This document shows, piece after piece, positions 28,858 through 60,695 of a stretch of 64,000 nucleotides of DNA. The notes below the pieces were generated by a model. That model saw nothing but the letters and a program-made list of their open reading frames with translations. It searched no databases and was not told the DNA's origin. The first letter of the stretch is position 1; each line of letters opens with the position of its first letter. The position numbers and the translations under genes are program-made. This DNA comes from Gammaproteobacteria bacterium (GTDB lineage: Bacteria > Pseudomonadota > Gammaproteobacteria > UBA4575), in contig CBDEUS010000001.1 in assembly GCA_965243395.1 (NCBI GenBank), positions 192,001-256,000 on the forward strand, written 5' to 3'.

Positions 28858-29056
28858 GTTTTTAGATAAAAAACTTACCGCTTTCTTTCATACTTTAAAT
28901 TATAACTGCTTCTGACTGAAAGCGGACAAATTCGCAGTAGATTTAGATCCATAAATTATTAAATGAAAGATAAAGGCTCTAAAGAAAATACATGATTAGT
29001 AAAATTCAATAACTTCACCTTTTATTAAATAATAACTAAAAAGAATAAACGAAAAT

Positions 29057-38928: not shown

Positions 38929-40020
38929 ATGGGATTCAAGTGTGGAATTGTAGGTATGCCTAACGTTGGCAAATCAACACTCTTTAATGCTTTAACTGCA
39001 ACTGAAATTGCAGCAGAAAATTATCCGTTCTGCACTATTGATCCAAATGTAGGCATTGTTCCAGTGCCGGATTCACGCTTAGACACACTCGCCAAGATTG
39101 CATCTTCAGCGGAAGTCATTCCAACGACTATAGAGTTTGTAGATATTGCAGGGTTGGTTGCAGGAGCATCTAAAGGCGAAGGATTGGGTAATCAATTTTT
39201 AGGGCATATTCGCGAAACCGATGCTATAGCACATGTGGTGCGTTGTTTTGATGATGAAAATATTGTTCATGTAGATGGAAAAGTTGATCCAATTTCAGAC
39301 CTTGAAACCATTTATACAGAATTAATATTGGCAGATTTAGAATCCGTTGATAAAGCGATTGCAAAAGTAGAACGTATTGCCAAGTCTGGAAATAAAGAAG
39401 CTTTAGCACAAGTAGAACTTTATAAAAAACTAAAAGATCATCTCGAAAACGAAAAAGATGCTTTTAGTTTTGAAATAAGTAAAGAACAAGCACCGCTTCT
39501 TCGCGAGCTTCATTTGATTACCGCTAAACCGGTATTTTATATTGCTAATGTTGCAGAAGATGGTTTTGAGAATAATGAGCATTTGAAAAAACTTGAAGAG
39601 TTAGCAAAAAAAAGATCAGTTCAAGTGATTCCAGTCTGTGCGCAAATTGAAGCCGAACTTGCTCAGTTAGATGATGCAGAACAAAAAGAATATTTAGCAG
39701 AATTAGGTTTAGAAGAACCAGGTTTAAACCGGGTAATACGCGCAGGTTACGAGTTGCTCGGGCTGCAAACATTTTTTACTGCTGGTCCAAAAGAAGCGCG
39801 TGCCTGGACAGTTGCAAAGGGTGCAACCGCACCACAAGCGGCAGGCAAGATTCACACCGATTTTGAAAAAGGATTTATCCGCGCCGAAGTAGTGGCCTAT
39901 CAGGACTATGTGGATGCCAACGGTGAGGCAGGGGCCAAAGATGCCGGTAAATGGCGCCTGGAAGGGAAAGAATATGTAATGCAGGAAGCGGATGTGGTCC
40001 ACTTTAGGTTTAATGTTTAA
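38929..40020 (+). CDS. ychF: Redox-regulated ATPase YchF
   Basis: [41 protein letters not shown]. Confidence 0.97.
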
Positions 40021-40099
40021 TACTTTTGGGTAGAATTGACAGTTTGCAGGGCGTTATATAAGGTCCGCTATCCCAAATCATGGGTCAATCTAAGCATAT

Positions 40100-40176
40100 G
40101 GCTATGTAGCTCAGTTGGTTAGAGCACAGCATTCATAATGCTGGGGTCATTGGTTCAAGTCCAATCATAGCCACCA
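40100..40176 (+). tRNA. tRNA-Met(CAT), elongator type; integration target
   Basis: GGCTATG/CATAGCC acceptor stem, anticodon loop TTCATAA, CCA end; closely resembles enterobacterial elongator tRNA-Met. Confidence 0.95.
40132..40176 (+). repeat. attL core (3' half of tRNA-Met)
   Basis: TTCATAATGCTGGGGTCATTGGTTCAAGTCCAATCATAGCCACCA, identical to 60651-60695. Confidence 0.95.
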
Positions 40177-40233
40177 TTTAAATCAATAAGTTATATGATT
40201 ATTGATCATTATCAAGAATGGCTGATCTAGTCA

Positions 40234-40252
40234 TTCCTGCACAATTCCTGCA
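40234..40252 (+). promoter_or_regulatory. Putative integrase arm-type binding site (left)
   Basis: TTCCTGCACAATTCCTGCA, identical to 60500-60518. Confidence 0.7.
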
Positions 40253-40293
40253 AACAGTTCGAATTTGCGCCTTTTTATACTTATATACTGTTT

Positions 40294-40323
40294 TATGTTT
40301 TCTTTCAGCTAATAGCAATCATT
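40294..40323. repeat. Degenerate B half-site (left end of array)
   Basis: TATGTTTTCT-TTCAGCTAAT-AGCAATCATT versus B consensus nATGWCYGCT-TTCGGCCAAT-AGCGGWCATT. Confidence 0.6.
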
Positions 40324-40326
40324 TAG

Positions 40327-40716
40327 TTATTTCTTGGAGACAACTACCATTTCTTTAATTTCAAGTTCTACTTCTGTGCCATATCCTAACTTCCATGTTG
40401 GGAATGGAGCTATTAACAAAGCAATCCAGCCTTGCATCGTTGTTACTTTAACTAATCCGAGATTTTGGTCCTCATCTGAAATCTGGTATGTGTCAATGCA
40501 ATGTGTAGGAATAATGCCGAGTGTTAGTACATAGAACATTGGTTCAAAACAATGAGCACCCTCTGGAAATTCGTTCTCTTTTGTTACTGAAATTTCTTCG
40601 AGACCTTTTTGTGATAATTGTAATTCGCTCTCTGGAACGACCTTATACGTGGCACAAGCAGGCAGAAATAATGCCAAAATAAGTGGAATAAGTACTTTTA
40701 TATTGTATTGCTTCAT
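40327..40716 (-). CDS. Cassette gene: hypothetical lipoprotein
   Basis: Lipobox FLPAC; 129 aa. Confidence 0.75.
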   Translation of the reverse strand: MKQYNIKVLIPLILALFLPACATYKVVPESELQLSQKGLEEISVTKENEFPEGAHCFEPMFYVLTLGIIPTHCIDTYQISDEDQNLGLVKVTTMQGWIALLIAPFPTWKLGYGTEVELEIKEMVVVSKK

Positions 40717-40728
40717 ACAGACCTAATA

Positions 40729-40758
40729 AATTTCCGCTTTCGGCCAATAACGGACATT
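40729..40758. repeat. Single 30-bp palindrome with B core (collapsed site)
   Basis: AATTTCCGCT-TTCGGCCAAT-AACGGACATT. Confidence 0.85.
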
Positions 40759-40767
40759 TGTTCAAAA

Positions 40768-41139
40768 TTAATTACGACGTTTTCGTGGTTTAGCAACTAC
40801 TTGCCAACCATCTTCATAAATAATGATTCCTGGATCATCTGTTTTTAATGTATCTATGATAATTCCATGTTCTTCAAGTATAGCTTTTATAGCCCAAATT
40901 CTTTTTAGTGGCTCCTTAGCCTCGGGTTTAAACCAAGAAATTGCTCTAAAATGCTCTTCATCCTTTAATTCTGGAGGACTCTTTAAATGCTCCTTCAACC
41001 ATTCAATATTTTTTAATAATTCATTTTCTAAATACGTTTCTAGCTTTAAGCTATCTCTTAGCTCAAATGCAATTTGGAAAATTCCTAGATAGCTATTACT
41101 GCCTTTATTCTTAATTCGTCCTTGAAATCGGATAAACAT
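40768..41139 (-). CDS. Cassette gene: hypothetical protein
   Basis: 123 aa ending PGIIIYEDGWQVVAKP; fits exactly between repeats. Confidence 0.75.
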   Translation of the reverse strand: MFIRFQGRIKNKGSNSYLGIFQIAFELRDSLKLETYLENELLKNIEWLKEHLKSPPELKDEEHFRAISWFKPEAKEPLKRIWAIKAILEEHGIIIDTLKTDDPGIIIYEDGWQVVAKPRKRRN

Positions 41140-41161
41140 TCTTCAAATTATTTTAATTTAC

Positions 41162-41264
41162 AATGTCCGCTTTGGGTCGTTAGGAGACATTTTGCGCTTG
41201 TATGTAATTGATTCCAACCTACCACTTCTCATTTTATGACTGCTTTCGGCCATTAGCGGTCATT
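41162..41264. repeat. Full bipartite site 1 (A 41162-41191, 43-bp linker, B 41235-41264)
   Basis: AATGTCCGCTTTGGGTCGTTAGGAGACATT ... ATTCCAACC ... TATGACTGCTTTCGGCCATTAGCGGTCATT. Confidence 0.92.
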
Positions 41265-41655
41265 TGGAGTAATGAAATTGTTTATAAACTATCGTTGCAA
41301 CACTAATATTTATTAAAACAAATATTAACCCTGGGATAAGACTTATAATGCTGTTTTGAAATCCAAAAAACTTCCAGTCTGTATTTATAATTTCATATAT
41401 CCACCATCCAGTATTAAATAACACTATTAAGTAGAAAATATATTGAGACCAGTTTCTATTCGCGAATAAAGCAATACCAGCTACCAAATATGGCATAGCG
41501 TAAAAAACAAACTTCCAATGTTTGTAAACATAAGCACCCCACAGCAGATATACTCCAGCAAGAATAACAGCTAAAATTGCCAACCATTTTCCCAAAGAAC
41601 TTGTCTTGTTATTTTCTCCTAATTCACTATTTGGTGTTGAATACGGATTATCCAT
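41260..41655 (-). CDS. Cassette gene: 4-TM membrane protein
   Basis: MDNPYSTP N-terminus and four hydrophobic helices; stop codon lies inside the B palindrome. Confidence 0.8.
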   Translation of the reverse strand: MDNPYSTPNSELGENNKTSSLGKWLAILAVILAGVYLLWGAYVYKHWKFVFYAMPYLVAGIALFANRNWSQYIFYLIVLFNTGWWIYEIINTDWKFFGFQNSIISLIPGLIFVLINISVATIVYKQFHYSK

Positions 41656-41673
41656 CTGATTTATTTTATTAAT

Positions 41674-41776
41674 AATGTCTGCTTTGGGTCGTTACCAGAC
41701 ATTTTGCTCTTGTATGCTGTTGAATCCAACCGATTGCGTCCCATTTTTTGTCTCCTTTCGGCCATAAGCGGACATT
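41674..41776. repeat. Full bipartite site 2 (43-bp linker)
   Basis: AATGTCTGCTTTGGGTCGTTACCAGACATT ... AATCCAACC ... TTTGTCTCCTTTCGGCCATAAGCGGACATT. Confidence 0.92.
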
Positions 41777-42258
41777 CAATAACCGTAATATTTTGGGTTC
41801 TCTAAAACAGAACGAGCAGTTTCTTTAGCTTGTTCAGAAGTAAACTTTGCGCGAATAAGAACACCAACAGCACAATTTTCGTCTTTTCTTTTTATGCAAT
41901 TTTCAAACTCATCAGATAAGTTGAAAAACCAAAGTCTTTCATTAACTGTCATTCCTTTGTAACTTTCACTAAACCAAATATCCCATTCAAAATCCTTATC
42001 ATCAATTTTATAACTATCCCCACCCATAACTACATCAATTGCTTGCAAGTATTCATTTTGAGTTAATTCGCATGGCTCCCATTTTATATCTGTACCCAAT
42101 TTCCCATCATCAAATCCTCTTTTAAGTAAAAAATTAATTGTCGTTAAAGAGGGCCAATGCGCCATTTTCTTACAGTAAATAAATGATAAACCCAACTCGA
42201 ATAATCTAGCAGTGCTCTGATGTCCAGATTCAATTATTTGCACATTGTGGAGTTTCAT
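41776..42258 (-). CDS. Cassette gene: hypothetical protein
   Basis: 160 aa with C-terminal GMTVNERL...PKYYGY segment. Confidence 0.75.
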   Translation of the reverse strand: MKLHNVQIIESGHQSTARLFELGLSFIYCKKMAHWPSLTTINFLLKRGFDDGKLGTDIKWEPCELTQNEYLQAIDVVMGGDSYKIDDKDFEWDIWFSESYKGMTVNERLWFFNLSDEFENCIKRKDENCAVGVLIRAKFTSEQAKETARSVLENPKYYGY

Positions 42259-42272
42259 TTTTCTAAATTTAA

Positions 42273-42375
42273 AATGTCCGCTTTGGGTCGTTACCTGACA
42301 TTTTGAACTGGTATGTCTTTGTTTCCAACCTGTTTCATCCTAAATTATGTCTTCTTTCGGCCAGAAGCGGTCATT
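42273..42375. repeat. Full bipartite site 3 (43-bp linker)
   Basis: AATGTCCGCTTTGGGTCGTTACCTGACATT ... TTTCCAACC ... TATGTCTTCTTTCGGCCAGAAGCGGTCATT. Confidence 0.92.
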
Positions 42376-42805
42376 CAATAGTTTTACAGAAAGGCGGATT
42401 GTTGTTTGCGGATTCCAAGCTATTTGGATTTGTAAATGGCCAAATATTTCTATCAAAACCGTTATATTCTTTTGGGAAAAAGCCAAACGTGAATATTCTA
42501 ACTATGCCTCTTACGCAAGCTTTTATTCCTGTTTTTTTAGGCCATAAATATTCATAGTCAGATTTCAAGAATAGAATTACCCTAGCTAATTCTCTTTTAT
42601 GTTCATCTGGTATGCGCCAGTCACCTTTGAGCTTGTGAGTCTTAAAATCATCGTAAAGTGGCCAGCCTGCTTGCCACCATATTTCGTAAATAGCAAGGTC
42701 ATCTGATTCAGGAAGACGGCTTTCAAATTCAAAATTATCTATTTGCCCAGAATAGAAATGTCTTAATAATTCAGCAAATTTGTCTCGTGCTTTTCTATCA
42801 ATCAT
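42371..42805 (-). CDS. Cassette gene: hypothetical protein
   Basis: 144 aa (W-LYDD...ILFLKSDYEYLWP...WPF); stop codon inside the B palindrome. Confidence 0.75.
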   Translation of the reverse strand: MIDRKARDKFAELLRHFYSGQIDNFEFESRLPESDDLAIYEIWWQAGWPLYDDFKTHKLKGDWRIPDEHKRELARVILFLKSDYEYLWPKKTGIKACVRGIVRIFTFGFFPKEYNGFDRNIWPFTNPNSLESANNNPPFCKTIE

Positions 42806-42814
42806 TTTTTTGCG

Positions 42815-42917
42815 AATGTCCGCTTTGGGTCGTTACCGGACATTTTGCTCTTGTATGTAATTGATTCCAATCTACTACTTCTCATTTTTTGACTGCTTTC
42901 GGCCAATAGCGGTCAAA
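42815..42917. repeat. Full bipartite site 4 (43-bp linker)
   Basis: AATGTCCGCTTTGGGTCGTTACCGGACATT ... ATTCCAATC ... TTTGACTGCTTTCGGCCAATAGCGGTCAAA. Confidence 0.92.
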
Positions 42918-43308
42918 ATCTATGTTCATTATCATGATTAATTTTTCCAGTTCCATCATGATATAAATCTAGAACTACTAATCCAGAACCATCGTTACAA
43001 AAGTGTCTTGTTCCATTTTCTAACTCTTCATTTCTGGGGCAAAATATAGCAAGGCTTGTTACTTTATCTGGATCATATTTAAAAGTCGCATACACCAAGT
43101 TCGTATCAATATTATGTTGTTCGTGTATATCAGTAGCGCTTTTCGGCAAGTACTCTGGTAGCCACCCAGCAATCATCATGCCTGCTTCTTTTGCTTCATC
43201 GTAAGTTGAAAAATGAGACTCTGTATTTTCCCAATTTTTGCACCACGAAATTGATAGAAGAATAAGAATTAAGCTACCCGCGATTACTATAATAGATGAC
43301 TTAACCAT
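42913..43308 (-). CDS. Cassette gene: exported/membrane-anchored hypothetical protein (YbbD-like head)
   Basis: N-terminal hydrophobic helix; GWLPEYLPKSATDIHEQHNIDTN; stop codon inside the B palindrome. Confidence 0.7.
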   Translation of the reverse strand: MVKSSIIVIAGSLILILLSISWCKNWENTESHFSTYDEAKEAGMMIAGWLPEYLPKSATDIHEQHNIDTNLVYATFKYDPDKVTSLAIFCPRNEELENGTRHFCNDGSGLVVLDLYHDGTGKINHDNEHRF

Positions 43309-43328
43309 GATGGATTGCGTATTAAGCT

Positions 43329-43441
43329 AATGTCCGCTTTGGGTCGTTAGCAGTCATTTTATGTTTGAGTTTTTGTGATTCCAACCTAATTTCCCCCTGA
43401 GTGGTCTAGATCATGTCCGCTTTCGGCCAATAGCAGTCATT
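43329..43441. repeat. Full bipartite site 5 (53-bp linker)
   Basis: AATGTCCGCTTTGGGTCGTTAGCAGTCATT ... ATTCCAACC ... CATGTCCGCTTTCGGCCAATAGCAGTCATT. Confidence 0.92.
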
Positions 43442-43444
43442 TCT

Positions 43445-43945
43445 TTATTTATTCTCGAGTAATTGTTTTAACTTATCCTCTGCAGCTTGAAGTTCATTTT
43501 CTAAATTTTTAACACGATCATGATATCCTTGAGTAAACCTGGTCGATCCACTTGAAAGTATGCCTGATGTACCTATTCGCTCACCTGGAAGTGGCTCTAT
43601 TCCTTTTTCTAATACCTCTTTTTTATTGGCTATATCTTGCCTCGTTGCTTTTATCTCAGCATCGCGTTTTTTGCGAGCACTAATTCTTTCGTTTATACGC
43701 TGACTTATGTTGTCATGTTGTTTCTTAATCTCTTTCTGTTTTACCTTAGTTTTACTTGCAGGAATAGTATTCGCATCTTGTAAGTCTATCTCTTCAATAT
43801 TGTTTGTATTATTTGGTGGGACAGAGGTATAAACGGTTTTACCATTTTCATCCACATATTTATAAACTTTTGACTGCGAATAAGCAGCAATTGTATACAT
43901 GAGCAAAAAGACAACTATAATTGAATTATTGAATCTATTATTCAC
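43445..43945 (-). CDS. Cassette gene: DUF4124 secreted protein
   Basis: Signal peptide, VYKYVDENGKTVYTSVPP, coiled coil. Confidence 0.8.
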   Translation of the reverse strand: MNNRFNNSIIVVFLLMYTIAAYSQSKVYKYVDENGKTVYTSVPPNNTNNIEEIDLQDANTIPASKTKVKQKEIKKQHDNISQRINERISARKKRDAEIKATRQDIANKKEVLEKGIEPLPGERIGTSGILSSGSTRFTQGYHDRVKNLENELQAAEDKLKQLLENK

Positions 43946-44053
43946 TTGATTTCCAAATAAATTATTTAGATTGAAATCATTTTATAGGTCATTATCACTA
44001 CATTTAGATGTCCATTTCACAATAATACGAATGTAATGTATTTTTCTGTTGCA

Positions 44054-44083
44054 AATATCCGCTTTAGATCGTTAGCAGGCATC
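44054..44083. repeat. Degenerate A half-site (right end of array)
   Basis: AATATCCGCT-TTAGATCGTT-AGCAGGCATC. Confidence 0.7.
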
Positions 44084-44331
44084 TTAACTTATTTGATCGA
44101 TAATACTCATTAGCACAAGTAAACTACTTATATAATTATATTTAACATTTAATTGGTTAAATATAAAAGTCTGAACTAGTTCTAGAGTTGAGATTAGTTT
44201 ATATAATTAAGTCCAATATTGGACCTAAGTGTTATATATCTTAATTAGCTTAGCTATTATCGTTGAGGCTATATTATTTTACATTTAAGAATAGTAATTA
44301 AACAGTCTACATTAATTTGGAATAGTTAATT

Positions 44332-44745
44332 ATGAAACGTATTTTGATACTGGTAATCCTTTTTACTACTAATACATATGCTGGGGAAGCTGCTGTAAGT
44401 AGCGATCAATACGGTGAGAAGTGGCCTTTCACTGTTTCTGAAGGAATTGTTAAATGCAAAAAATATCAAAGTGGGAATCATATTCTTGATGCTGTTACGT
44501 TTTTATCAGAAGGCAAAGAGTATGCAATTAACGGTCATGCTATAACGGTTTCAAAAGACTCAAGTCTTAAAATAAATCAATCCATTGATAGCATATGGAA
44601 AGAAGACCCTAAATATAATGAAACGGTAAAAGAGCTTGCTGTAGCTTTAAATAAATCAGAAAAAGAAATTAGAGATGAAATGGGTTCGCCAATGCGCGTA
44701 AGTATAAGTCCTGTTTTAGATAAAGGGTTAAAACTTTGTAATTAA
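44332..44745 (+). CDS. YebY/DUF2511-like secreted protein
   Basis: Signal peptide, VSSDQYGEKWPFTVSEGIVKC, YAING, GLKLC. Confidence 0.75.
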   Translation: MKRILILVILFTTNTYAGEAAVSSDQYGEKWPFTVSEGIVKCKKYQSGNHILDAVTFLSEGKEYAINGHAITVSKDSSLKINQSIDSIWKEDPKYNETVKELAVALNKSEKEIRDEMGSPMRVSISPVLDKGLKLCN

Positions 44746-44842
44746 AATTAGTAAGAGTTTAAGGTACTTTAGCACACAACATCAAGCCCCAAGAACTTTT
44801 GCTCTTGTCGTAATTCAACTAACCCAACAGTGTTTTAATATT

Positions 44843-45205
44843 ATGAAAAATTCAGATGAATATAAAGAATTTGTTACTGAACAACTTGATGAATGTTTTT
44901 TAAGCTATCGAGAATCAGTAAAGCAACACTTAAGCAAATTTGGGCCAGAAAACTTAGACAAGGTTTTAAACAAAATTGAAGCCGATATTAAAAATATTTT
45001 AGTTCAAAATTACATACATGATTATTCTAATATGTATGACAAATGGGATAAAGAAACTAGATCACTCTATATTAGAAATGAAGAAAAAAAGCAGGATTAC
45101 AAATGGTTGTTGCTTAAATTCTTAGGGTATGCGGTAACCATTATCTGTATTGGCTTTGTTTACAAATATTTTGGACTGTCGCCCTTCCTAAATCCTAATA
45201 GTTAA
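44843..45205 (+). CDS. Hypothetical protein with C-terminal TM helix
   Basis: 120-aa ORF. Confidence 0.55.
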   Translation: MKNSDEYKEFVTEQLDECFLSYRESVKQHLSKFGPENLDKVLNKIEADIKNILVQNYIHDYSNMYDKWDKETRSLYIRNEEKKQDYKWLLLKFLGYAVTIICIGFVYKYFGLSPFLNPNS

Positions 45206-45223
45206 TTTCTTAAAAACTCAGTT

Positions 45224-45424
45224 ATGAGATACAGAAAGCCAAGCCTAAAAACCTTACTCGGTATTACCAAAGCCAAACGTCGTGTGAAAAAGGATCTTGG
45301 TATATATAAAGTGACCAAGTACACCAATGCGCCAAAAAACGCTAAGAGACGTGTAAAAAGAAAGCTTGGCTATTACTCAGAACCTATGAAGATATTTCGA
45401 TTTATTAAAAGACTATTGAAATAA
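45224..45424 (+). CDS. Small highly basic protein with internal repeat
   Basis: 66 aa; KAKRRVKKDLGIY / NAKRRVKRKLGYY. Confidence 0.65.
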   Translation: MRYRKPSLKTLLGITKAKRRVKKDLGIYKVTKYTNAPKNAKRRVKRKLGYYSEPMKIFRFIKRLLK

Positions 45425-45736
45425 TACGGAAACATTTTCACATATTTTGGTCCGAAAACGGACCTAACACTTTTACTTTAATAACAAAGGCTATATGAGT
45501 TTTCTTTTAGAATATTTTTCATACAACATTTTTTGAATCTGAATTCAACAATAAAATAATTGTTATTTATAAATTCATTCACACACAATTACGAATAAAA
45601 ATTTCTTAATGTAAATTGTGACGATGTCAATTATTTGTCGTTGCTACAAATACTTCTGTAATTAAACTATCGTAATTAACAATTATCATAATTGTTAGTT
45701 AATAAAAACAACAATTCAGATTTGGGGAGTGTGAGT

Positions 45737-48700
45737 ATGAGGCCGTTCAATCTTGTTCGTTCAGTTTGTAAGAATTTAAAAGCGAGAAATGAGAGTTCAT
45801 TCTCTAATCTTCCAAATGATATTTTAATTCGATTTAAATTTTTAACATTACTTGTAATTCTATATTCATCATTGTTGCAACCATTGCACGCTCTTGAATT
45901 TTGCGGAGGTTCTTATGGTTCATGCAGTGCAGCGCAAGACGCATGTGATACAGTAACCGGTCACAGTAATTGTGACAGCCCGCCAACTAATAGCAGTAAT
46001 AATCATTGTCAGTCTGGAACTCATTATCACTCTGGAAATGTATTCAAAAGTGGCGGTTTTGATAACTATCACTTTACCTGCCTATCCGGCGGAGGTTGTG
46101 GTACGGGTATTACAGAATACACAATCAATAGTTTATGTTTACCAGAAGGGTTTAAAGTTGGAAATACGAAAGGTGCTCCACAAATGTGTGTGGGCAATCC
46201 TCTTAATCCTGCGACTGGAAATAAATTTCAGGCAGAACAAGACATCTCCATCCCGAATAGCGATTTATCCTTTTCGCGTTACTACAATTCAGTAGACGAA
46301 GGGCATGCGGGTGAATTAATCATTAAGGGAAGATGGACTTATGATTATCTTCAAAGACTAGATCCTTCTAATGGATTTGTAACCGTATATCGTCCTGATG
46401 GGAAGGAACTCGTATTCGATTGCCCAGCCACAACTGGGTCTTGTACAGGAGACACCGATCTCAAAATAGAACTTGAGAAAACTTCTACAGGATATTCGCT
46501 ATTAACTTCCAGTAATAACACAGAAGACTATGATACGAATGGAAAACTGCAATCCATTACCTCACTCGCGGGCCAAACACAAACATTATCTTATAACAGC
46601 ACATCTGGATTACTGGAAACCGTTACTGATCATTTTAATCGTACCTTAACGTTTACTTTTGGGACAAGTAGTCGAATAGAAACCATTACCGATCCAAATG
46701 GCGAAGTCTACACATATGATATAGACACGGATAAAAATCTACTATCGGTAACGTATCCCGATGACACACCTGGTACCACAACGGATAATCCAAAACGTGA
46801 GTTTCAATACAACGATACAAATTTTGATTCATTACTCACAGGTATTGTGGATGAGAATGGAAACTTATATGCCGAATTTGATTACGACACCCAAGGACGG
46901 GCGATTCAATCAAAACATGCGGGAGGTGTGGAGCAAGTTGATTTAGTTTATAACGTGGATGGCACTACAACTGTCACGGATTCATTAGGTGCAACGAACA
47001 CCTTCACCTTTGATATCGTGGCATTTGTTCCCAAAACAACGGCTATATCCGGTGGCCAATGTGGCAGCGGTTGTAGTTCACAAGCACAAGCGCAAACTTA
47101 TGACACGAATGGTTATATTGCATCCAGTACCGATTTTGAAGGGAATGTAACTAACTTTGTCAATAACAGTCGGGGACTACAAACTTCAAGAACCGAAGCG
47201 GTGGGAGAATTAGAAGAGCGCACGATAACGACTGACTGGCATTCGACTCTCAGGCTACCTACCAAGATCACAGACAATGGTAAAGAAACTTCCATTACTT
47301 ATAACACTAATGGTCAGGTTCTTACCCGAACTGAAAAAGATTTATCCAATAACAATACGCGCACGACAACGTTTACCTATGATAGTAATGGGAATGTGTT
47401 GACTATCAATGGACCGCGCACTGATATTGATGACATTACCACCTTCACCTATGACACGTCTGGCAATCGTGCCAGCATGAGCGTTGACCCCGATGGCGCA
47501 GGATCTGCACCTGCACAAGTCACTAACTATACTTCTTATGATAATAGCGGGCGTTTGCTCTCCATGACCGATCCTAATGGCGTGGTCACAACGATGGACT
47601 ATGACCCACGTGGGCGCTTAGAGTCGCGTACGGTTGCAAGTGGAACATCCGAAGCTGCAACCACTACTTTTGAATACGATGGCGTGGGGAATGTCACAAA
47701 AATCACATTGCCAAATAATAGTTATCTTTCTTACACGTACGATACTGCACAACGCTTAACGAACATTGAAGACAATCTTGGAAATAAAATTACCTATACC
47801 TTAGATGACTTGGGTAATCGCACCAAAGAAGATGTGTTTGATACCAGCAGCACCTTACGCCGTACACAAAGCCGTGTGTTTGATCAACTCAGTCGAATGA
47901 CCCAGCACACAGGAGGAGCAAGTCAAGTAAGCATTTTTGGTTATGATGGTAATGGTAATCAGGTTTCTGTACTAGACCCTTTAAGCCGAAGCTCTACCTC
48001 TTCCTTTGATGCGTTGAATCGTCTCATTACTTCAACCGATCCGGCATTAAGTGATACAGACTATACGTATGATGATCGCGATAACTTGATCAGTGTATCG
48101 GATGCACGAAGTCTTACTACCACCTACACCTATGATGATTTAGATAACTTAACTCAACTCGTTAGTCCAGACACAGGAACAACTACCTATACGTATGATG
48201 ATGCTGGGAATCGACTTACCCAAACCGATGCCAGAAGTAAAACTACAACCTATACCTATGATGCGTTAAATCGAGTCAGTTCTATAACTTATCCTGATAC
48301 TAGTTTGAATGTCACGTTTACATATGACTCAGGAACGAATGGTAAAGGTCGTTTAACGGGCATGACCGACGCATCAGGTACGACAACATACACCTATGAC
48401 AAGCGTGGAAATCTTGCGAGTGAATCAAAAGTCATCAGCGGTCAAACGTATCTTACGAGTTATGCGTATGATGATGCAGACAATGTCACACAATTAACCT
48501 ATCCAAGTGGGCGCACGGTTGATTACGAATACAATAGCATCGGACAAGTGGTTCAAGTGGAGACTACCTTAGGCAGTAATACCAACATTGTTGCATTTGA
48601 TATTAACTACCACCCATTTGGACCTATTAAAAGTTTAATCTTTGGTAACGGGTTAAGCACTGCATACACATTTGATCAAGACTATCGACTTACCGATGCG

Positions 48701-50815
48701 GTTACAGACAATAATACTCATTCATTGACGTACGCTTATGATCTTGGCGATAACATTTCTACGATCACTGACAATAATGATTCAACGCGTAATCAATCTT
48801 TCACGTATGACAATTTAGATCGCTTATTAAGTGGTAACGGGATTTATGGTTCACTGAGTTACACTTATGATGTAGTCGGTAACCGTCTCACGGAAACAAA
48901 AAATTCAGTAACCGATACTTATAGTTATGCGACTACCAGTAATCAAGTACAAACTATCACTGGTGGTCAAATTAATTCGTTTACTTACGATGCTGCAGGA
49001 AATATCACAGTTGGAAGCGGGGATACCTTCACGGTAAATGATGCCAATCGTATGGCAACCGCAGCAAGTGGTTCGACAACAGCTACGTATACCTATAACG
49101 GCAAAGGCGAACGTACTATAAAAGTAGTGGGTTCTACGACAACGATTTACCACTATGACCAAAATGGACAGCTAATAGCTGAGTCCGATGCACTCGCAAA
49201 TTCACAAGCTGAATATATCTATCTCAATGGGCAACGCCTTGCGTTAATTGATCCTAATGGAACAGGAACGGGCGCATCGGGTATTGTCATCGATAACAGT
49301 GATTCTAGCTCGACTAGTACGATTGGAAATTGGACGACTACCGTAACGGGTACGGGAGATTACGAAGGATCTGATGTTGCGCAGTCAGCATTGAATAGCA
49401 TTGAAATCATTATTGATGATGTTGATTCTTCAACGTCATCTGTAGGTAATTGGTGGCTTAGCACAGCTTCTCATTGGTATGGAGGTACGGCTCAGCATAT
49501 AAGATGGCCAGGCTCAGGTAGTCAAATTTTTACTTGGAATTTTTCTTCTATATCAAGTGGTAATTATGAGGTAGCTGCCCAATGGTGGGCTCACCCGCAA
49601 TATACATCAATTGCACCCTATACTATAAATCACACACAAGGCAGCACGCTTGTATTGGGAGATCAAACCCAAAATCCGGGCTGGAATGTGCTCGGAACAT
49701 TTTCGCTTGATTCCACCAGCAGTATCGAACTAAGCGATGATGCAAATAATAAATATGTCATGGCCGATGCGATACGCTTAATTGATAACACCATACCCAC
49801 ATTCACTTGGGATGCACCGGTGGGCACGTTTGATGTGTATGCAGAATGGACACAAGATTCGAGTCATGCAACGGATTCAACTTATACACTTCATCATTCA
49901 ACAGGACAGACAACTGTAACGGTGAATCAACAAACCAATGGTATAGGTTTGAATTATTTAGGTACAGCAACTTTTGATGCAACAGGAAAAGTTGTTTTGG
50001 CTAGCGGGTCAGATGGAAATGTCATTGCCGATGCAATTCATTTTATAGGGACTTCCACATCCACCACTGCATTGTATTACATTCACAGTAATCACTTAGA
50101 CACCCCTCAAGCCATTACCGACGGAAGTAAAACGGTTGTTTGGAGTGCGGATTATGAACCGTTTGGGGAGACAAATATAACCGTTAATACTTTAACGAAT
50201 AATCTACGATTCCCTGGCCAATATGCTGATAGTGAAAGTGGATTACATTACAACTACTTTAGAGATTACAACCCTAGTATTGGGCGCTATATGCAATCAG
50301 ATCCGATTGGGTTACTTGGCGGATTTAATACCTATGTTTATGTGAAAGCAAATCCACAAAAATTTACCGACAACTTAGGTTTATATGATTCTGATTTTGA
50401 TGCAGCAGAACAAACAATCAATAGATTATTCAAAGGATACAATATTCCTCCTATTTCGACATGTAGCGGTGGTGTAGATTGTACAAGACGCGGATTAGAT
50501 ACATTTGATGAAGGTGGTTATTTACCAGAAACAGATGAAATTATTATAAATGAATTAGATTTTGGTACTGGAGATAATATGAGAGACATAGCTCTCAATG
50601 ATGTACAAGCATATAATCTACTGAACACTTATATCCATGAAATCTTGCATGCAAATCAAAACTTGTTTGGTGATTTCGCAATGAGAAACTTACAAAATGG
50701 ACGAGGTTCTCCGGGAGCATTTTTGCATGACACAATTTATCGATGGGCAGACATTCTAACAAAAAGAAACTTTCAGTCATTCAATGAGTTGAGAGAGCAA
50801 TGCGAAATTAAGTAA
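45737..50815 (+). CDS. Rhs/YD-repeat polymorphic toxin with DUF6531-like domain, nested golvesin-like domains and HExxH tip
   Basis: GNPLNPATGNKF, many YD repeats, core end LRFPGQYAD..YNYFRDYNP.IGRYMQSDPIGL.GG.N.Y.YV..NP..TDNLGL, then YIHEILH; ATG 45737 after GGGGAG. Confidence 0.92.
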   Translation: MRPFNLVRSVCKNLKARNESSFSNLPNDILIRFKFLTLLVILYSSLLQPLHALEFCGGSYGSCSAAQDACDTVTGHSNCDSPPTNSSNNHCQSGTHYHSGNVFKSGGFDNYHFTCLSGGGCGTGITEYTINSLCLPEGFKVGNTKGAPQMCVGNPLNPATGNKFQAEQDISIPNSDLSFSRYYNSVDEGHAGELIIKGRWTYDYLQRLDPSNGFVTVYRPDGKELVFDCPATTGSCTGDTDLKIELEKTSTGYSLLTSSNNTEDYDTNGKLQSITSLAGQTQTLSYNSTSGLLETVTDHFNRTLTFTFGTSSRIETITDPNGEVYTYDIDTDKNLLSVTYPDDTPGTTTDNPKREFQYNDTNFDSLLTGIVDENGNLYAEFDYDTQGRAIQSKHAGGVEQVDLVYNVDGTTTVTDSLGATNTFTFDIVAFVPKTTAISGGQCGSGCSSQAQAQTYDTNGYIASSTDFEGNVTNFVNNSRGLQTSRTEAVGELEERTITTDWHSTLRLPTKITDNGKETSITYNTNGQVLTRTEKDLSNNNTRTTTFTYDSNGNVLTINGPRTDIDDITTFTYDTSGNRASMSVDPDGAGSAPAQVTNYTSYDNSGRLLSMTDPNGVVTTMDYDPRGRLESRTVASGTSEAATTTFEYDGVGNVTKITLPNNSYLSYTYDTAQRLTNIEDNLGNKITYTLDDLGNRTKEDVFDTSSTLRRTQSRVFDQLSRMTQHTGGASQVSIFGYDGNGNQVSVLDPLSRSSTSSFDALNRLITSTDPALSDTDYTYDDRDNLISVSDARSLTTTYTYDDLDNLTQLVSPDTGTTTYTYDDAGNRLTQTDARSKTTTYTYDALNRVSSITYPDTSLNVTFTYDSGTNGKGRLTGMTDASGTTTYTYDKRGNLASESKVISGQTYLTSYAYDDADNVTQLTYPSGRTVDYEYNSIGQVVQVETTLGSNTNIVAFDINYHPFGPIKSLIFGNGLSTAYTFDQDYRLTDAVTDNNTHSLTYAYDLGDNISTITDNNDSTRNQSFTYDNLDRLLSGNGIYGSLSYTYDVVGNRLTETKNSVTDTYSYATTSNQVQTITGGQINSFTYDAAGNITVGSGDTFTVNDANRMATAASGSTTATYTYNGKGERTIKVVGSTTTIYHYDQNGQLIAESDALANSQAEYIYLNGQRLALIDPNGTGTGASGIVIDNSDSSSTSTIGNWTTTVTGTGDYEGSDVAQSALNSIEIIIDDVDSSTSSVGNWWLSTASHWYGGTAQHIRWPGSGSQIFTWNFSSISSGNYEVAAQWWAHPQYTSIAPYTINHTQGSTLVLGDQTQNPGWNVLGTFSLDSTSSIELSDDANNKYVMADAIRLIDNTIPTFTWDAPVGTFDVYAEWTQDSSHATDSTYTLHHSTGQTTVTVNQQTNGIGLNYLGTATFDATGKVVLASGSDGNVIADAIHFIGTSTSTTALYYIHSNHLDTPQAITDGSKTVVWSADYEPFGETNITVNTLTNNLRFPGQYADSESGLHYNYFRDYNPSIGRYMQSDPIGLLGGFNTYVYVKANPQKFTDNLGLYDSDFDAAEQTINRLFKGYNIPPISTCSGGVDCTRRGLDTFDEGGYLPETDEIIINELDFGTGDNMRDIALNDVQAYNLLNTYIHEILHANQNLFGDFAMRNLQNGRGSPGAFLHDTIYRWADILTKRNFQSFNELREQCEIK

Positions 50816-50847: not shown

Positions 50848-51249
50848 ATGAAAGGATCAATAAAAGTATTTATAGTTGTACTTATACTATTGGCATTACC
50901 AATTTACCCTAAGTTTCCGGTACAAGTTGCAGATCCTGTGGGAGTGGAAGATTCTCGAATTAAAGTAAATATAAATACCGATGAGTTAGAAGTAATACTC
51001 CATACGATTAGAGGAAAAAAATTTGATTTTTTATATAGTAGATTAAAAAATAGGAATACAAGACCTCTTATTGGAATCTACGACATATCTGGCAAAAGTA
51101 CTGATGAAAAATTATCTCAATTAGATAATTCAATAAAAGATTCTGAAATAATAGCTATTACTGGATCGAAAGGTTATAGAGAGTCGTATTATTTTAATAG
51201 AGATGGTGCATCACTAAAATTTATCACTTCACGAGATATCATGATCTAA
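50848..51249 (+). CDS. Putative immunity protein (membrane-anchored/exported)
   Basis: Directly downstream of the Rhs tip; N-terminal hydrophobic helix. Confidence 0.55.
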   Translation: MKGSIKVFIVVLILLALPIYPKFPVQVADPVGVEDSRIKVNINTDELEVILHTIRGKKFDFLYSRLKNRNTRPLIGIYDISGKSTDEKLSQLDNSIKDSEIIAITGSKGYRESYYFNRDGASLKFITSRDIMI

Positions 51250-53331: not shown

Positions 53332-53444
53332 TATGTATGCATTGGATAATAAGCAGACATTTTAAGTTTATAAATTATTGAATCTAACCTGACATTCTCC
53401 TCAATGGTTTAATTTATGACAACTTACGGCCAATAGCAGGCGTG
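53332..53444. repeat. Degenerate orphan copy of the bipartite cassette site (53-bp linker)
   Basis: TATGTATGCATTGGATAATAAGCAGACATT ... AATCTAACC ... TATGACAACTTACGGCCAATAGCAGGCGTG. Confidence 0.65.
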
Positions 53445-53508
53445 AATTAATCATCTTATACGCTTTGATTATGGCATTTTTCTTTTAATTTTTAGCAAGA
53501 TAACCTAT

Positions 53509-53877
53509 ATGAATCTTAAATCAGTTATTTTTTTAATTTTGTTTAATATTATTTTAGTTTTGTCTGGATGCTCATCACCTGAAGAAATGGCAGCCAACAA
53601 GGCTGAAAAGGAAGCACTTAAGCATCTTCACTCAGCGCAAAATGGTGCAGCAATTTCTCAGTTAAAACTTGGTAATGCGTACCATGTTGGTAATGGCGTA
53701 ACCCAAGACAATAAATACGCGTACATGTGGGTAAGCTTTGCAGTGGAGCAAGGATTAGGCGCTTCTGCGGATGAATCTTTTGAAAAAATAAAAGCGGATA
53801 TGACCTCTTCTGAAATTGAGGAAGCTAAAAAATTAGCATTAACATGTAAGAAAGAAAAAGGTTACAGAGACTGCTGA
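53509..53877 (+). CDS. Sel1-repeat lipoprotein
   Basis: Lipobox LSGC; SQLKLGNAYHVGNGVTQDNKYAYMW. Confidence 0.85.
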   Translation: MNLKSVIFLILFNIILVLSGCSSPEEMAANKAEKEALKHLHSAQNGAAISQLKLGNAYHVGNGVTQDNKYAYMWVSFAVEQGLGASADESFEKIKADMTSSEIEEAKKLALTCKKEKGYRDC

Positions 53878-59252: not shown

Positions 59253-60497
59253 TTAAATATCATTTAACAAAGCCACAGCCGCAGCCTTATGCTCAGGCGC
59301 TAAATGTGCATAGCGTAGCGTCATGGATAGCTCTGAATGACCAAGCAATTCACGTACAGTATTTAAATCAACACCTGCCATGACTAACTTGCTCGCAAAG
59401 TGGTGTCGTAAATCATGAAAGCGAAAGTCTTTTATCTGAGAAGTCTTTCGTAGGTTTTCCCAAGCGGTTTGAATGTTATCGAAACGTTTACCTGTATTAG
59501 GATTAGGGAATACAAATCTCTTTGATTCAGTCTGATTTCTCCAAGCGATTAACGTACCCAGTGCTTCATCGTTTAGAGGGATGTGACGTGTTGAACCTGA
59601 TTTAGATGAAACACCTTCAACAGTTATGTTTCTTTTCTTGAGATCGACGTTTTCCCATCGAAGATCAAACAACTCACCTCTGCGCATACCTGTGTTTATG
59701 GCTACTAGAATCATGGGCTTTAAGTAATCAGCAAATGACTTTTTGCTTAAATCTTCTAATAGTTTCTTGCCTCTAGCTGCTCTCCAATCATTTCCAGATT
59801 GTCTATCCTTGATAATACTTTTCTCTCTAGAATCTAATGCTTTTCTGAGTCTCTTTTCTTCATCATCCGTCAAGTAGCGTATCTTTCCTTTACTATCGAC
59901 CTTTAAAGGTTTGACCTTTGTAAGAGGGTGCTTGTTAATAACTCCCCATTCGAGTGCTTTAGATAAGACGGCTTTCAACGCCATCAACTGACGATTAACC
60001 GTTGAGGGTTTGAGACCCTCCTTAATTTCCACAGTCCGCCACTTTTGTATTTCCCATGGAGTGATTTCTTCCATATTGTGTTTCATAAGATGAGGGAAGG
60101 CGAGGTTAAGTTTCTTGAGAGTTTCCTCACCCGATTTACGTTCGACGAGTACCCAAGGTTTATATTTATTCTCGATGAACTTGCCTAGGACTTGATGCTT
60201 TCTGGCTTCACTTCTTTTCTTGGCTGATTTTTTGTTTTCTTGAATGTCCTGGCCTTTGGCTAATTCACCTATTTTGATCTTTGCATGTTCACGAGCTTGA
60301 TCAGCAGTCAGTTTGCCATACTTGCCTAAGGTGTATTCTTTACCTGAACCATTGTGACGATAGTAAATACAAAAGCTTTTCACTCCGCTTGGCATGACGC
60401 GTAAGAAGAATCCAGGCTGTTCGGTATCCCAAACCTTGTAGTACTTAGATCGTGGCTTAAAAGCCTTTACAGTGCGTGTCGTAAGCTTCTCTTTCAC
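59253..60497 (-). CDS. int: Tyrosine recombinase/integrase with N-terminal arm-binding domain
   Basis: N-terminal VWD..PGF.LRV.PSG.KSF...TLGKYG; catalytic TGMRRGE, K, FHDLRH, LLGH, RYAH. Confidence 0.95.
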   Translation of the reverse strand: MKEKLTTRTVKAFKPRSKYYKVWDTEQPGFFLRVMPSGVKSFCIYYRHNGSGKEYTLGKYGKLTADQAREHAKIKIGELAKGQDIQENKKSAKKRSEARKHQVLGKFIENKYKPWVLVERKSGEETLKKLNLAFPHLMKHNMEEITPWEIQKWRTVEIKEGLKPSTVNRQLMALKAVLSKALEWGVINKHPLTKVKPLKVDSKGKIRYLTDDEEKRLRKALDSREKSIIKDRQSGNDWRAARGKKLLEDLSKKSFADYLKPMILVAINTGMRRGELFDLRWENVDLKKRNITVEGVSSKSGSTRHIPLNDEALGTLIAWRNQTESKRFVFPNPNTGKRFDNIQTAWENLRKTSQIKDFRFHDLRHHFASKLVMAGVDLNTVRELLGHSELSMTLRYAHLAPEHKAAAVALLNDI

Positions 60498-60518: not shown

Positions 60519-60650
60519 TAATTAAAATACACTCATATACCTTGAGTGACTAAAATAAGGTTAATAAAAGCCTATAAATATAGGGATTATAACGAATATT
60601 AGGTATATAAAGGTATCTTACAGGATAGGGAAGGATAAGGCTATAACGCT

Positions 60651-60695
60651 TTCATAATGCTGGGGTCATTGGTTCAAGTCCAATCATAGCCACCA
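60651..60695 (+). repeat. attR core (duplicated 3' half of tRNA-Met)
   Basis: 45-bp identity to 40132-40176, starting at the anticodon loop. Confidence 0.95.

Follow-up and report, generated by a model that had tools for sequence, protein, structure and literature searches.

The window analysed here is a stretch of 64,000 nucleotides from a gammaproteobacterium of the GTDB lineage UBA4575 (assembly GCA_965243395.1, contig CBDEUS010000001.1, positions 192,001 to 256,000). Between 40.3 and 44.1 kb it carries 7 small minus-strand open reading frames (ORFs), which are separated by five composite palindromic units and by one solitary palindrome. Each unit, or doublet, consists of a palindrome A, a linker and a palindrome B. 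The best explanation is that A and B belong to a single dispersed family of palindromic DNA elements, which are 30 bp long and resemble repetitive extragenic palindromes (REPs), and that they differ as variants of its core. The genome to which the window belongs, labelled G000, comprises 2.58 Mb in 2 contigs and is 100% complete, and its closest relative is labelled G012; further G, C and L numbers denote genomes, contigs and loci. The array and its immediate surroundings contain the following features, given in window coordinates.

40100..40176, plus strand: tRNA-Met, left end of an array-bearing island of about 20.5 kb (ARAGORN; Rfam tRNA, 74.6 bits)
40327..40716, minus strand: last array gene, 129 aa, signal- or lipoprotein-like N-terminus, no Pfam family
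40729..40758, plus strand: solitary B-type palindrome between two genes (nhmmer, 24.6 bits)
40768..41139, minus strand: cassette gene, 123 aa, no Pfam family
41162..41264, plus strand: doublet 1, with A at 41162-41191, a 43-bp linker and B at 41235-41264 (nhmmer, E 2e-33)
41260..41655, minus strand: cassette gene, 131 aa, hydrophobic, stop codon in the B arm, 68%-identical DNA match in G011
41674..41776, plus strand: doublet 2, 43-bp linker
41776..42258, minus strand: cassette gene, 160 aa, no family, present in 1/55 other genomes of the family
42273..42375, plus strand: doublet 3, 43-bp linker
42371..42805, minus strand: cassette gene, 144 aa, TGA stop inside the arm in G000 and G003
42815..42917, plus strand: doublet 4, 43-bp linker, 95% identity to a doublet at another locus, in G012
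42913..43308, minus strand: cassette gene, 131 aa, no family
43329..43441, plus strand: doublet 5, 53-bp linker class
43445..43945, minus strand: first array gene, DUF4124 protein, 166 aa (PF13511, E 4e-10)
44054..44083, plus strand: degenerate palindrome of A type, not paired with a B, upstream of the first array gene

The five A-linker-B units between 41162 and 43441 and the orphan B, all with invariant cores, were recovered by reading the sequence and with a repeat finder, at the coordinates that the original prediction had given for them. The units are 103 or 113 bp long. Palindrome A begins with AATGTCYGC, continues with the loop TTTGGGTCGTTA, identical in 5/5 units, and closes with a variable right arm ending in GWCATT. 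Palindrome B has a variable left arm, followed by TTTCGGCCAnnA and GCRGWCAWW, and TTCGGCCA is the same in 5/5 B sites and in the orphan at 40729-40758. The 30-bp element can thus be described as 9-bp arms (AATGTCCGC and GCGGWCATT) around a 12-nt centre, the middle 6 bp of which are GGGTCG in A or CGGCCA in B. With up to one mismatch allowed, the pattern GCTTTSGGYCR matched the window 17 times (mean 4.5 and maximum 10 in 100 shuffles), and 11 of these matches fell within 40736-43429, every one on the plus strand. The 12-mer of the A loop is present 16 times in the genome of 2.58 Mb, where random sequence would give about 0.3 by arithmetic estimate; both results lie well above chance.

Two larger samples were gathered. 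A profile search, which is independent of the doublet pattern, gave 283 unique palindromes, and a pattern fixing both loops gave 74 unique doublets from 18 genomes, a sample in which loop invariance is therefore imposed. A and B stand head-to-tail in 74/74 doublets. The outer arms had been described as conserved and the inner arms as drifting, and this was found to be only weakly true over the 74 doublets: the mean information is 1.67 bits in the left and 1.49 in the right arm of A, compared with 1.39 in the left and 1.45 in the right arm of B.

The core was CGGCCA or GGGTCG in 233/283 unique copies. Nine perfect pairs were found in just 8 of the 283, the mode being 2 mismatches. In the 74 doublets, 80.4% of the cells in the local stems pair, compared with 80.5% after shuffling (298/500 shuffles reached or exceeded the observed value), and when the whole unit was folded, A-left with B-right, the figures were 79.5% and 80.9% (500/500). 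The long-range fold of the doublet was rejected, as it is not better than two local hairpins and neither of them covaries. Among 203 unique palindromes the variable stem positions change independently: position 7 holds C:G in 77, T:G in 67, C:A in 39 and T:A in 8, and position 5 holds T:A in 86, T:T in 79, A:T in 12 and A:A in 12. Doublet 5 folded no better than its shuffles (z -0.47 and -1.85). An intrinsic terminator or a structured RNA family was likewise rejected, given the lack of covariation, the count of 0 terminator-like sites in 40000-44500, and an Rfam search that returned nothing but the tRNA and weak chance matches in 40000-46000 and no family in 10 other loci.

Since the loop is the most constrained part and pairing is not kept copy by copy, the elements were read as double-stranded recognition sites. 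The original prediction had favoured a DNA site over an RNA hairpin and had asked for arm covariation to be weighed against core invariance; the arms without compensatory change, the stem pairing at shuffle level and the discrete, conserved cores bear out the DNA-site reading. Judged from these sequences, the elements look like DNA sites and not like selected RNA hairpins; they may in addition act weakly as hairpins, either in RNA or in single-stranded DNA. The core-type sites of tyrosine recombinases consist of inverted arms of about 11 bp around a centre of 6-8 bp. The elements show this anatomy, with inverted arms of 9-12 bp around GGGTCG or CGGCCA and with discrete cores.

The linkers of the window are 43, 43, 43, 43 and 53 bp long, as had been stated, and the further copy at 53333-53446 also has 53 bp. 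Lengths of 43 bp (29) and 53 bp (34) dominate among the 74 doublets. The other 11 linkers have different lengths (41, 42, 48, 51, 52 in four cases, 54 in two, and 55), and the two main classes proved to be sequence subfamilies which differ by a block of about 10 nt just before B. The 10-bp step therefore need not mean helical phasing, and the protein-bridged complex that had been proposed to explain it is not needed.

The constant distance of TCCAAC from A, first noted in the window, is general: with up to one mismatch the motif occurs at linker offset 21 in 73/74 doublets. Read on the gene strand it is TTGGAA or TTGGAT in 67/74 doublets, and 17 nt further on there are hexamers such as CAAAAT (22), TAAAAT (16) and TTTAAT (12), whose last bases lie in the A arm. 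Our hypothesis is that the linker carries a promoter-like TTGGAA-17-xAxAAT facing the downstream gene. At the start of an array in G012, linker-like sequence and A, without B, precede the first gene, which fits a unit composed of linker, A, gene and B. A small peptide encoded across the doublet was discarded: an ORF runs through some 43-class linkers, but it lacks a conserved start, and in the 53 class the frame is shifted. The start codons of the cassette genes between 41139 and 43329 lie 10-22 nt downstream of A, and no clear Shine-Dalgarno sequence was seen there.

A profile built from ten window palindromes detected 84 palindromes in G000 (nhmmer E<=0.05), of which 77 are clustered in groups of 2-14. 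For 69/84 the end of an ORF in the same relative orientation lies within -15 to +150 nt; the other orientation was found in 7/84, and for 8/84 no ORF end lies in that range. In the most frequent arrangement, at a distance of -4 (12 cases), the TGA stop codon lies inside the arm (AATGAC on the gene strand). No paralogues were found among 68 flanking proteins. The neighbouring genes are mostly small orphans or belong to common accessory families (for example SRPBCC, SNase, GFA, HxlR, DUF1428 and methyltransferase, with one Rap1a immunity protein). A single A or a single B may also stand between two genes, in any order. At C2:535448-536740 of G000 (L217, 2448-3737) an array ends in a gene for a DNA/RNA non-specific endonuclease beside a Rap1a-family immunity gene, a pair which suggests that some array genes belong to interbacterial competition.

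The arrays turn over rapidly between close relatives. At one conserved locus, which spans 17.7 kb in G000 and 14.7 kb in G012 between flanks of 87-88% identity, nothing inside matches except palindromes and doublets, in stretches of up to 119 nt. G012 also contains a 16.3-kb array beside a tRNA, with 55 palindromes arranged almost entirely as A-43-B doublets; at the corresponding site of G000 the flanks are 57 bp apart and no palindrome is present. This array (L241, 1740-2110 and 17990-18200) starts about 300 bp downstream of the tRNA (anticodon CAT), past a short remnant of a tRNA 3' end, and is the third array found beside a tRNA gene.

In the DNA that was compared, eight single-gene segments were found to be common to different loci or genomes, with all four ends inside palindromes and with unrelated flanks.

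L228/L229, G013 and G010: 98.5% identity
L148/L230, G005 and G006: 88.3% identity
L231/L232, G003 and G015: 84.5% identity
L233/L208, G002 and G012: 89.6% identity
L241/L248, both within G012: 95.4% identity
L242/L250, both within G002: 85.6% identity
L242/L257, G002 and G007: 77.1% identity
L242/L265, both within G002: 77.9% identity

In three species pairs the cassette was compared with ychF, and the identities were 98.5 against 84.1%, 88.3-88.6 against 82.8% and 89.6 against 80.4%. That the cassettes are more alike than ychF points to recent transfer. The 144-aa gene of the window (42371..42805) has homologues of 59-61% identity in G047, a member of another genus, and in G003, and palindromes flank them too. 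Less favourable to exchange at palindromes are one further pair with 3/4 ends in palindromes and five more in which a palindrome lies near one end only, or 9-50 nt off.

The boundaries of the shared segments were also compared. Between G005 and G006 the gene is accompanied by the left arm and core of A; the right arm differs, and so does the linker, even by class (43 and 53). In the G002/G012 pair an unusual left arm travels with the gene and leads into an A core in one genome, into a B core in the other. Breakpoints lie between left and right arms in four pairs, and a point between left arm and core is suggested. From these comparisons, exchange would take place within or at the palindromes; no exact crossover position is claimed.

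Taken together, we propose that the REP-like palindrome family is the junction and crossover site of integron-like gene cassettes, with an enzyme acting in trans, and we give this reading a probability of roughly 0.5. The element lies directly after the stop codon, in one orientation, often supplying the stop itself. Most copies in the genus stand in hypervariable arrays of small, unrelated, co-oriented genes, where a single palindrome or a doublet forms the whole junction. Recombination at the elements would excise, insert or replace single genes, and the arrays would work like integron cassette arrays without integron integrase or attC. The elements are pictured as double-stranded protein-binding sites, in which the arms would be half-sites and the core the crossover or recognition region. 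The linker would belong to the unit before each gene, as a putative promoter whose second hexamer ends in the A arm. The cassette idea of the original prediction survives in part: the genes are flanked as described, and single bounded genes recur in unrelated loci and species; the particular mechanism, heterospecific A/B exchange by a tyrosine recombinase with a phased accessory site, stays conjectural.

The remaining features of the window concern the island in which the array lies and the copies outside the array.

28898..28933, minus strand: solitary degenerate palindrome after ispE and tRNA-Gln, not at the same place in G012
53333..53446, plus strand: degenerate doublet, the sixth, 53-bp linker, adjoining the Sel1-repeat ORF 53509-53877
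59253..60497, minus strand: island integrase, P4-type, a tyrosine recombinase with an arm-binding domain, at the far island end (PF00589, PF13356)
60648..60695, plus strand: 48-nt direct repeat of the 3' part of tRNA-Met, right island end (98% identity)

In G012 the DNA 3' of tRNA-Met runs straight into sequence matching the window at about 60648, an empty site. The Sel1-repeat ORF is itself a shared cassette gene. Besides the cassette array and the P4-type integrase, the cargo of the island (40177-60695) includes an Rhs-family protein, an HNH protein, an AAA_25 ATPase and a DUF5681 protein. The Rhs-repeat protein (45692-50815, 1707 aa) contains RHS repeats, DUF6531, two Golvesin_C domains and an RHS core, and is followed by a 133-aa ORF without family at 50848-51249, the arrangement that a polymorphic toxin and its immunity gene have.

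The enzyme that could act on the palindromes was sought in G000 and its relatives. The genome encodes five tyrosine recombinases, namely XerD and XerC (NCBIfam equivalogs above their cut-offs) and three island-type integrases. No match in G000 was obtained to Y1_Tnp (PF01797), Resolvase, IS110, rve, DDE_Tnp_1 or Transposase_31; Y2_Tnp was also without a match there, a weak result, since its control was silent as well. Three of the four Pfam-annotated array loci have no recombinase in or beside the array, and in the fourth, L221, a P4-type island integrase lies about 6 kb from it. Look-up of two cassette proteins with a protein language model returned unnamed clusters only.

REPINs (REP doublets forming hairpins) driven by REP-associated tyrosine transposases (RAYTs) were rejected, as G000 has no Y1_Tnp and the presence of this domain does not track the palindrome: it occurs in 1/14 other genomes of the genus, and the palindrome in 13 of those 14. 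XerCD sites were rejected by sequence comparison, the arms of the G000 dif being unlike those of the palindromes. This dif, a canonical dif-like site located with a consensus motif at C1:959290-959317, coincides with the point where the cumulative GC skew of contig 1 peaks; judging by where the skew turns in both contigs, the replichores may be unequal, or the assembly may be misjoined or unfinished. Arm-type sites of the island integrase were rejected too, there being no TCCAACC-like motif near the att ends; the nearest, at 59466-59474, is inside the integrase ORF. An integron integrase (TIGR02249) above cut-off was present in 6/41 genomes; not one of the 14 members of the genus that carry palindromes, G000 included, was among them. 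The sole integron integrase of the genus (G014:C20:40615-41559, 386.9 bits) belongs to the genome which is also the sole member of the genus without palindromes; as a single case, this may be coincidence.

The distribution of the family was followed with a 20-nt pattern, which matched 13/14 other genomes of the genus, 18/24 other genomes of the family and 1/16 genomes of other families of the class, and reversed-pattern controls gave 0 matches. A scan of one genome per species returned at least 136 stretches, many from Alphaproteobacteria (Pseudolabrys, Hyphomicrobiales). For this degenerate 20-mer about 70 chance matches were estimated in that collection, and isolated matches in other phyla are no proof; the full palindromes and the contigs with several copies are real. 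Among the matches listed, the alphaproteobacterial copies form two to four tandem palindromes which share the stem and differ in the loops. Four alphaproteobacterial metagenome-assembled genomes (MAGs) contained 260, 34, 150 and 446 perfect-stem copies, and a betaproteobacterial MAG 0. In one of the alphaproteobacterial MAGs a 27-mer (up to one mismatch) was found in 86 copies between genes, spaced by about 1 kb. The orientation of the alphaproteobacterial copies relative to genes gave no clear reading, as open frames are unreliable at high G+C and the flanks are short. In one such MAG (G075, L268-L297) many palindromes lie within about 100 nt of contig ends, and the family probably breaks short-read assemblies of MAGs of this kind.

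Several observations weigh against the cassette-junction proposal. No recombinase or nuclease is linked to the arrays, and since only XerC, XerD and three island integrases are present, the exchange may run through ordinary homologous recombination between repeats. Palindromes also stand 3' of housekeeping-type ORFs, as read from their translations (ammonium transporter amt, NADH dehydrogenase ndh, UbiH-, IspE- and MgtE-like proteins and a membrane pyrophosphatase), and this placement, like the 34-446 copies in the alphaproteobacterial MAGs, is typical of REPs. In the L241/L248 pair the boundary palindromes differ in both arms, and more so than the gene body. Ten homologues of array genes lie in palindrome-free loci with similarity confined to the coding region, so genes and palindromes also separate; among the orthologues of one such gene, two genomes have a conserved stretch after the stop codon and then a palindrome that begins at an identical position, and three genomes have no palindrome there. 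As for the presumed promoter, a consensus scan recognised 1/5 window linkers, and the region has 8 promoter-like sites against a shuffle mean of 18.4. Finally, the ending of homology in palindromes is partly forced, because the spacers are almost wholly palindromes. The informative facts are rather, as the compared segments indicate, that the shared unit is one gene and that the palindromes are the sole sequence common to its ends.

The alternative that survives best takes the palindromes as ordinary repeats of the REP or bacterial interspersed mosaic element (BIME) type, either selfish or regulatory, which are transcribed with the 3' ends of genes and work there as mRNA-stabilising or ribosome-stalling hairpins; segment boundaries would then coincide with them only since they occupy the spacers and provide short homology for RecA-dependent exchange. 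The family is genome-wide, occurs also after housekeeping genes and reaches hundreds of copies in other classes, which is REP-like behaviour. Its copies are extragenic, 3' of genes, in one orientation and near stop codons, and its two types with fixed linkers resemble mosaic elements. REPs within 15 nt of a stop codon are described as lowering translation in the available part of PMC12306157, and CGTC-type REPs likewise have no dedicated transposase according to the part of PMC3733652 that could be consulted. RNA folding was also somewhat better than in shuffles (mean -8.0 or -6.9 against -4.1 kcal/mol). The stems, however, do not covary and typically contain 2 mismatches in 9 pairs, with the 12-nt centre as the best conserved part; there is no terminator-like site in 40000-44500, the doublets are head-to-tail and not inverted, and no RAYT accompanies them. 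They are strongly concentrated in hypervariable arrays, contrary to the confinement to the core genome that is described for some REP families (PMC3733652, in the part available), and near-identical palindromes stand, across genera, beside genes that have diverged to about 60%. This explanation is a serious one, but on balance we consider it rather doubtful.

In the original prediction, A and B were taken as possible heterospecific core sites of a tyrosine recombinase, the genes flanked by B and A being swapped as in recombinase-mediated cassette exchange (RMCE), with a phased accessory site in the linker. The anatomy of the sites, with imperfect inverted arms flanking a centre that is conserved and, in A, asymmetric, would agree with this, as would the position of nearly every gene of the window array and the G012 array between B and A, the breakpoints between left and right arms in four pairs, the fixed offset of TCCAAC in 73/74 doublets, and the fact that the only recombinases of the genome are tyrosine recombinases. 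Yet single A or B sites also separate genes, in any order, and the arm of one cassette adjoins the A core in one genome but the B core in a second, observations that weigh against heterospecificity. The arrays are not accompanied by a recombinase gene, the arms of the G000 dif differ, and the nearest TCCAACC-like motif to the att ends of the island is the one at 59466-59474 within the integrase ORF. Of the linkers, 11/74 fall outside 43 and 53 bp, and both classes are sequence subfamilies. We regard this alternative as quite improbable.

That the units are attC sites of an integron array without integrase (cluster of attC sites lacking integron integrase, CALIN) is hardly credible: the small, co-oriented, unrelated genes, the imperfectly palindromic repeats of 100-115 bp that are similar within the lineage, the stop codons inside them and the hypervariability of the arrays would suit it, but no integron integrase above cut-off exists in G000 or the 13 other palindrome-bearing genomes of the genus while G014 has one and no palindromes, the only GTT of A precedes AGGA, ACCA, ACCT, ACCG or AGCA with no inverse partner (from reading the sequence), and single 30-bp palindromes also act as junctions.

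The proposal of cassette junctions can be extended, tentatively, to a previously unrecognised cassette system running parallel to integrons, with sites of its own kind (30-bp palindromes of at least two core types, single or in tandem) and a trans-acting enzyme that is neither IntI nor RAYT, and present in several classes of Proteobacteria as many small arrays, often beside tRNA genes. We think this possible, with the odds leaning against it. The genome with an integron integrase and no palindromes would fit two alternative cassette systems. If the proposal is right, there would be a second widespread way, besides integrons, to assemble and shuffle arrays of accessory genes, one without an array-linked integrase, and a REP-like repeat family whose mobilisation and role stayed unexplained would gain a function. 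The palindromes would then offer a sequence tag by which the flexible gene pool of these lineages could be located in genomes and metagenomes, and the conserved 30-mers would be ready probes for pulling down the binding protein. If the palindromes are ordinary REPs, they still provide a clean example of repeats structuring genomic islands. The interest lies in the link between REP-like repeats and integron-like arrays, both of which are known kinds.

Among known systems, the element is REP-like in placement and copy number and attC-like in what it separates. A literature search with motif strings gave no relevant match (unrelated primers only), and as a consensus is usually shown in figures the family may have been described; a search on cassette arrays with palindromic repeats found nothing relevant. 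On Acinetobacter plasmids, Xer sites flank single-gene modules. The palindromes resemble these sites, and tyrosine-recombinase core sites in general, in their inverted arms around a centre and in flanking single genes; they differ in that their arms are unlike the G000 dif, all array sites point the same way and no cognate enzyme was found.

The likeness to REPs and BIMEs is broad. Both are imperfect palindromes, of about 30 bp here and within the usual 20-40 bp, with tens to hundreds of extragenic copies mostly 3' of genes; in the present family two types are joined by fixed linkers, the stems of 8-9 bp begin with AT, and the copies occur mainly in Proteobacteria, with very large alphaproteobacterial families. 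In contrast to RAYT-associated REPs there is no RAYT, no GTAG-type end tag and no inverted doublet, and the flanks of the 30-mer vary. CGTC-type REPs share the lack of a dedicated transposase and, in the accessible part of their description (PMC3733652), have an unpaired CGTC or TGTC tag, a stem of 8-9 bp starting from AT, a loop of 4-5 nt, a CCA tail and head-to-head dimers. Of these characters only the stem length and the AT start fit, so that by this description the palindromes are set apart: they carry no unpaired GTAG or CGTC tag, TGTC being paired inside the stem, their loop has 12 nt and is the most conserved part, the CCA tail is missing and the doublets are head-to-tail. Some REP families are restricted to the core genome according to the same partial source, whereas the palindromes are concentrated in hypervariable arrays.

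With integrons and CALINs the palindrome arrays have in common promoter-poor, small, unrelated and co-oriented genes, a repeat unit of about 100 bp at the 3' end of each gene, often with the stop codon, repeats that are homogeneous within a lineage, fast turnover between close relatives and cassettes common across species. They differ in having no integron integrase and, by reading of the sequence, no attC core motifs, and integron attC sites were rejected on these two grounds. The unit is moreover made of two autonomous 30-bp palindromes of which one alone suffices, a genome holds many arrays and solitary copies, also after housekeeping genes, and the arms show no sign of selection for folding.

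A further parallel is offered by the rAID-1 clusters of Bacteroidales, which, in the part of the preprint available (bioRxiv 10.1101/471110), consist of small accessory genes in one orientation, up to about 31 per array, with intergenic repeats that its authors call reminiscent of integrons, and which begin with a conserved gene for a XerD-family recombinase. The nuclease and Rap1a immunity gene at the end of one palindrome array and the Rhs gene beside the window array recall these clusters, as far as the preprint was available; the palindrome arrays differ in that no recombinase gene starts them and in that most of their genes belong to no recognisable immunity family. On this partial source, the closest functional analogues of the palindrome arrays are integron/CALIN arrays and rAID-1 arrays, both of which have an array-linked recombinase.

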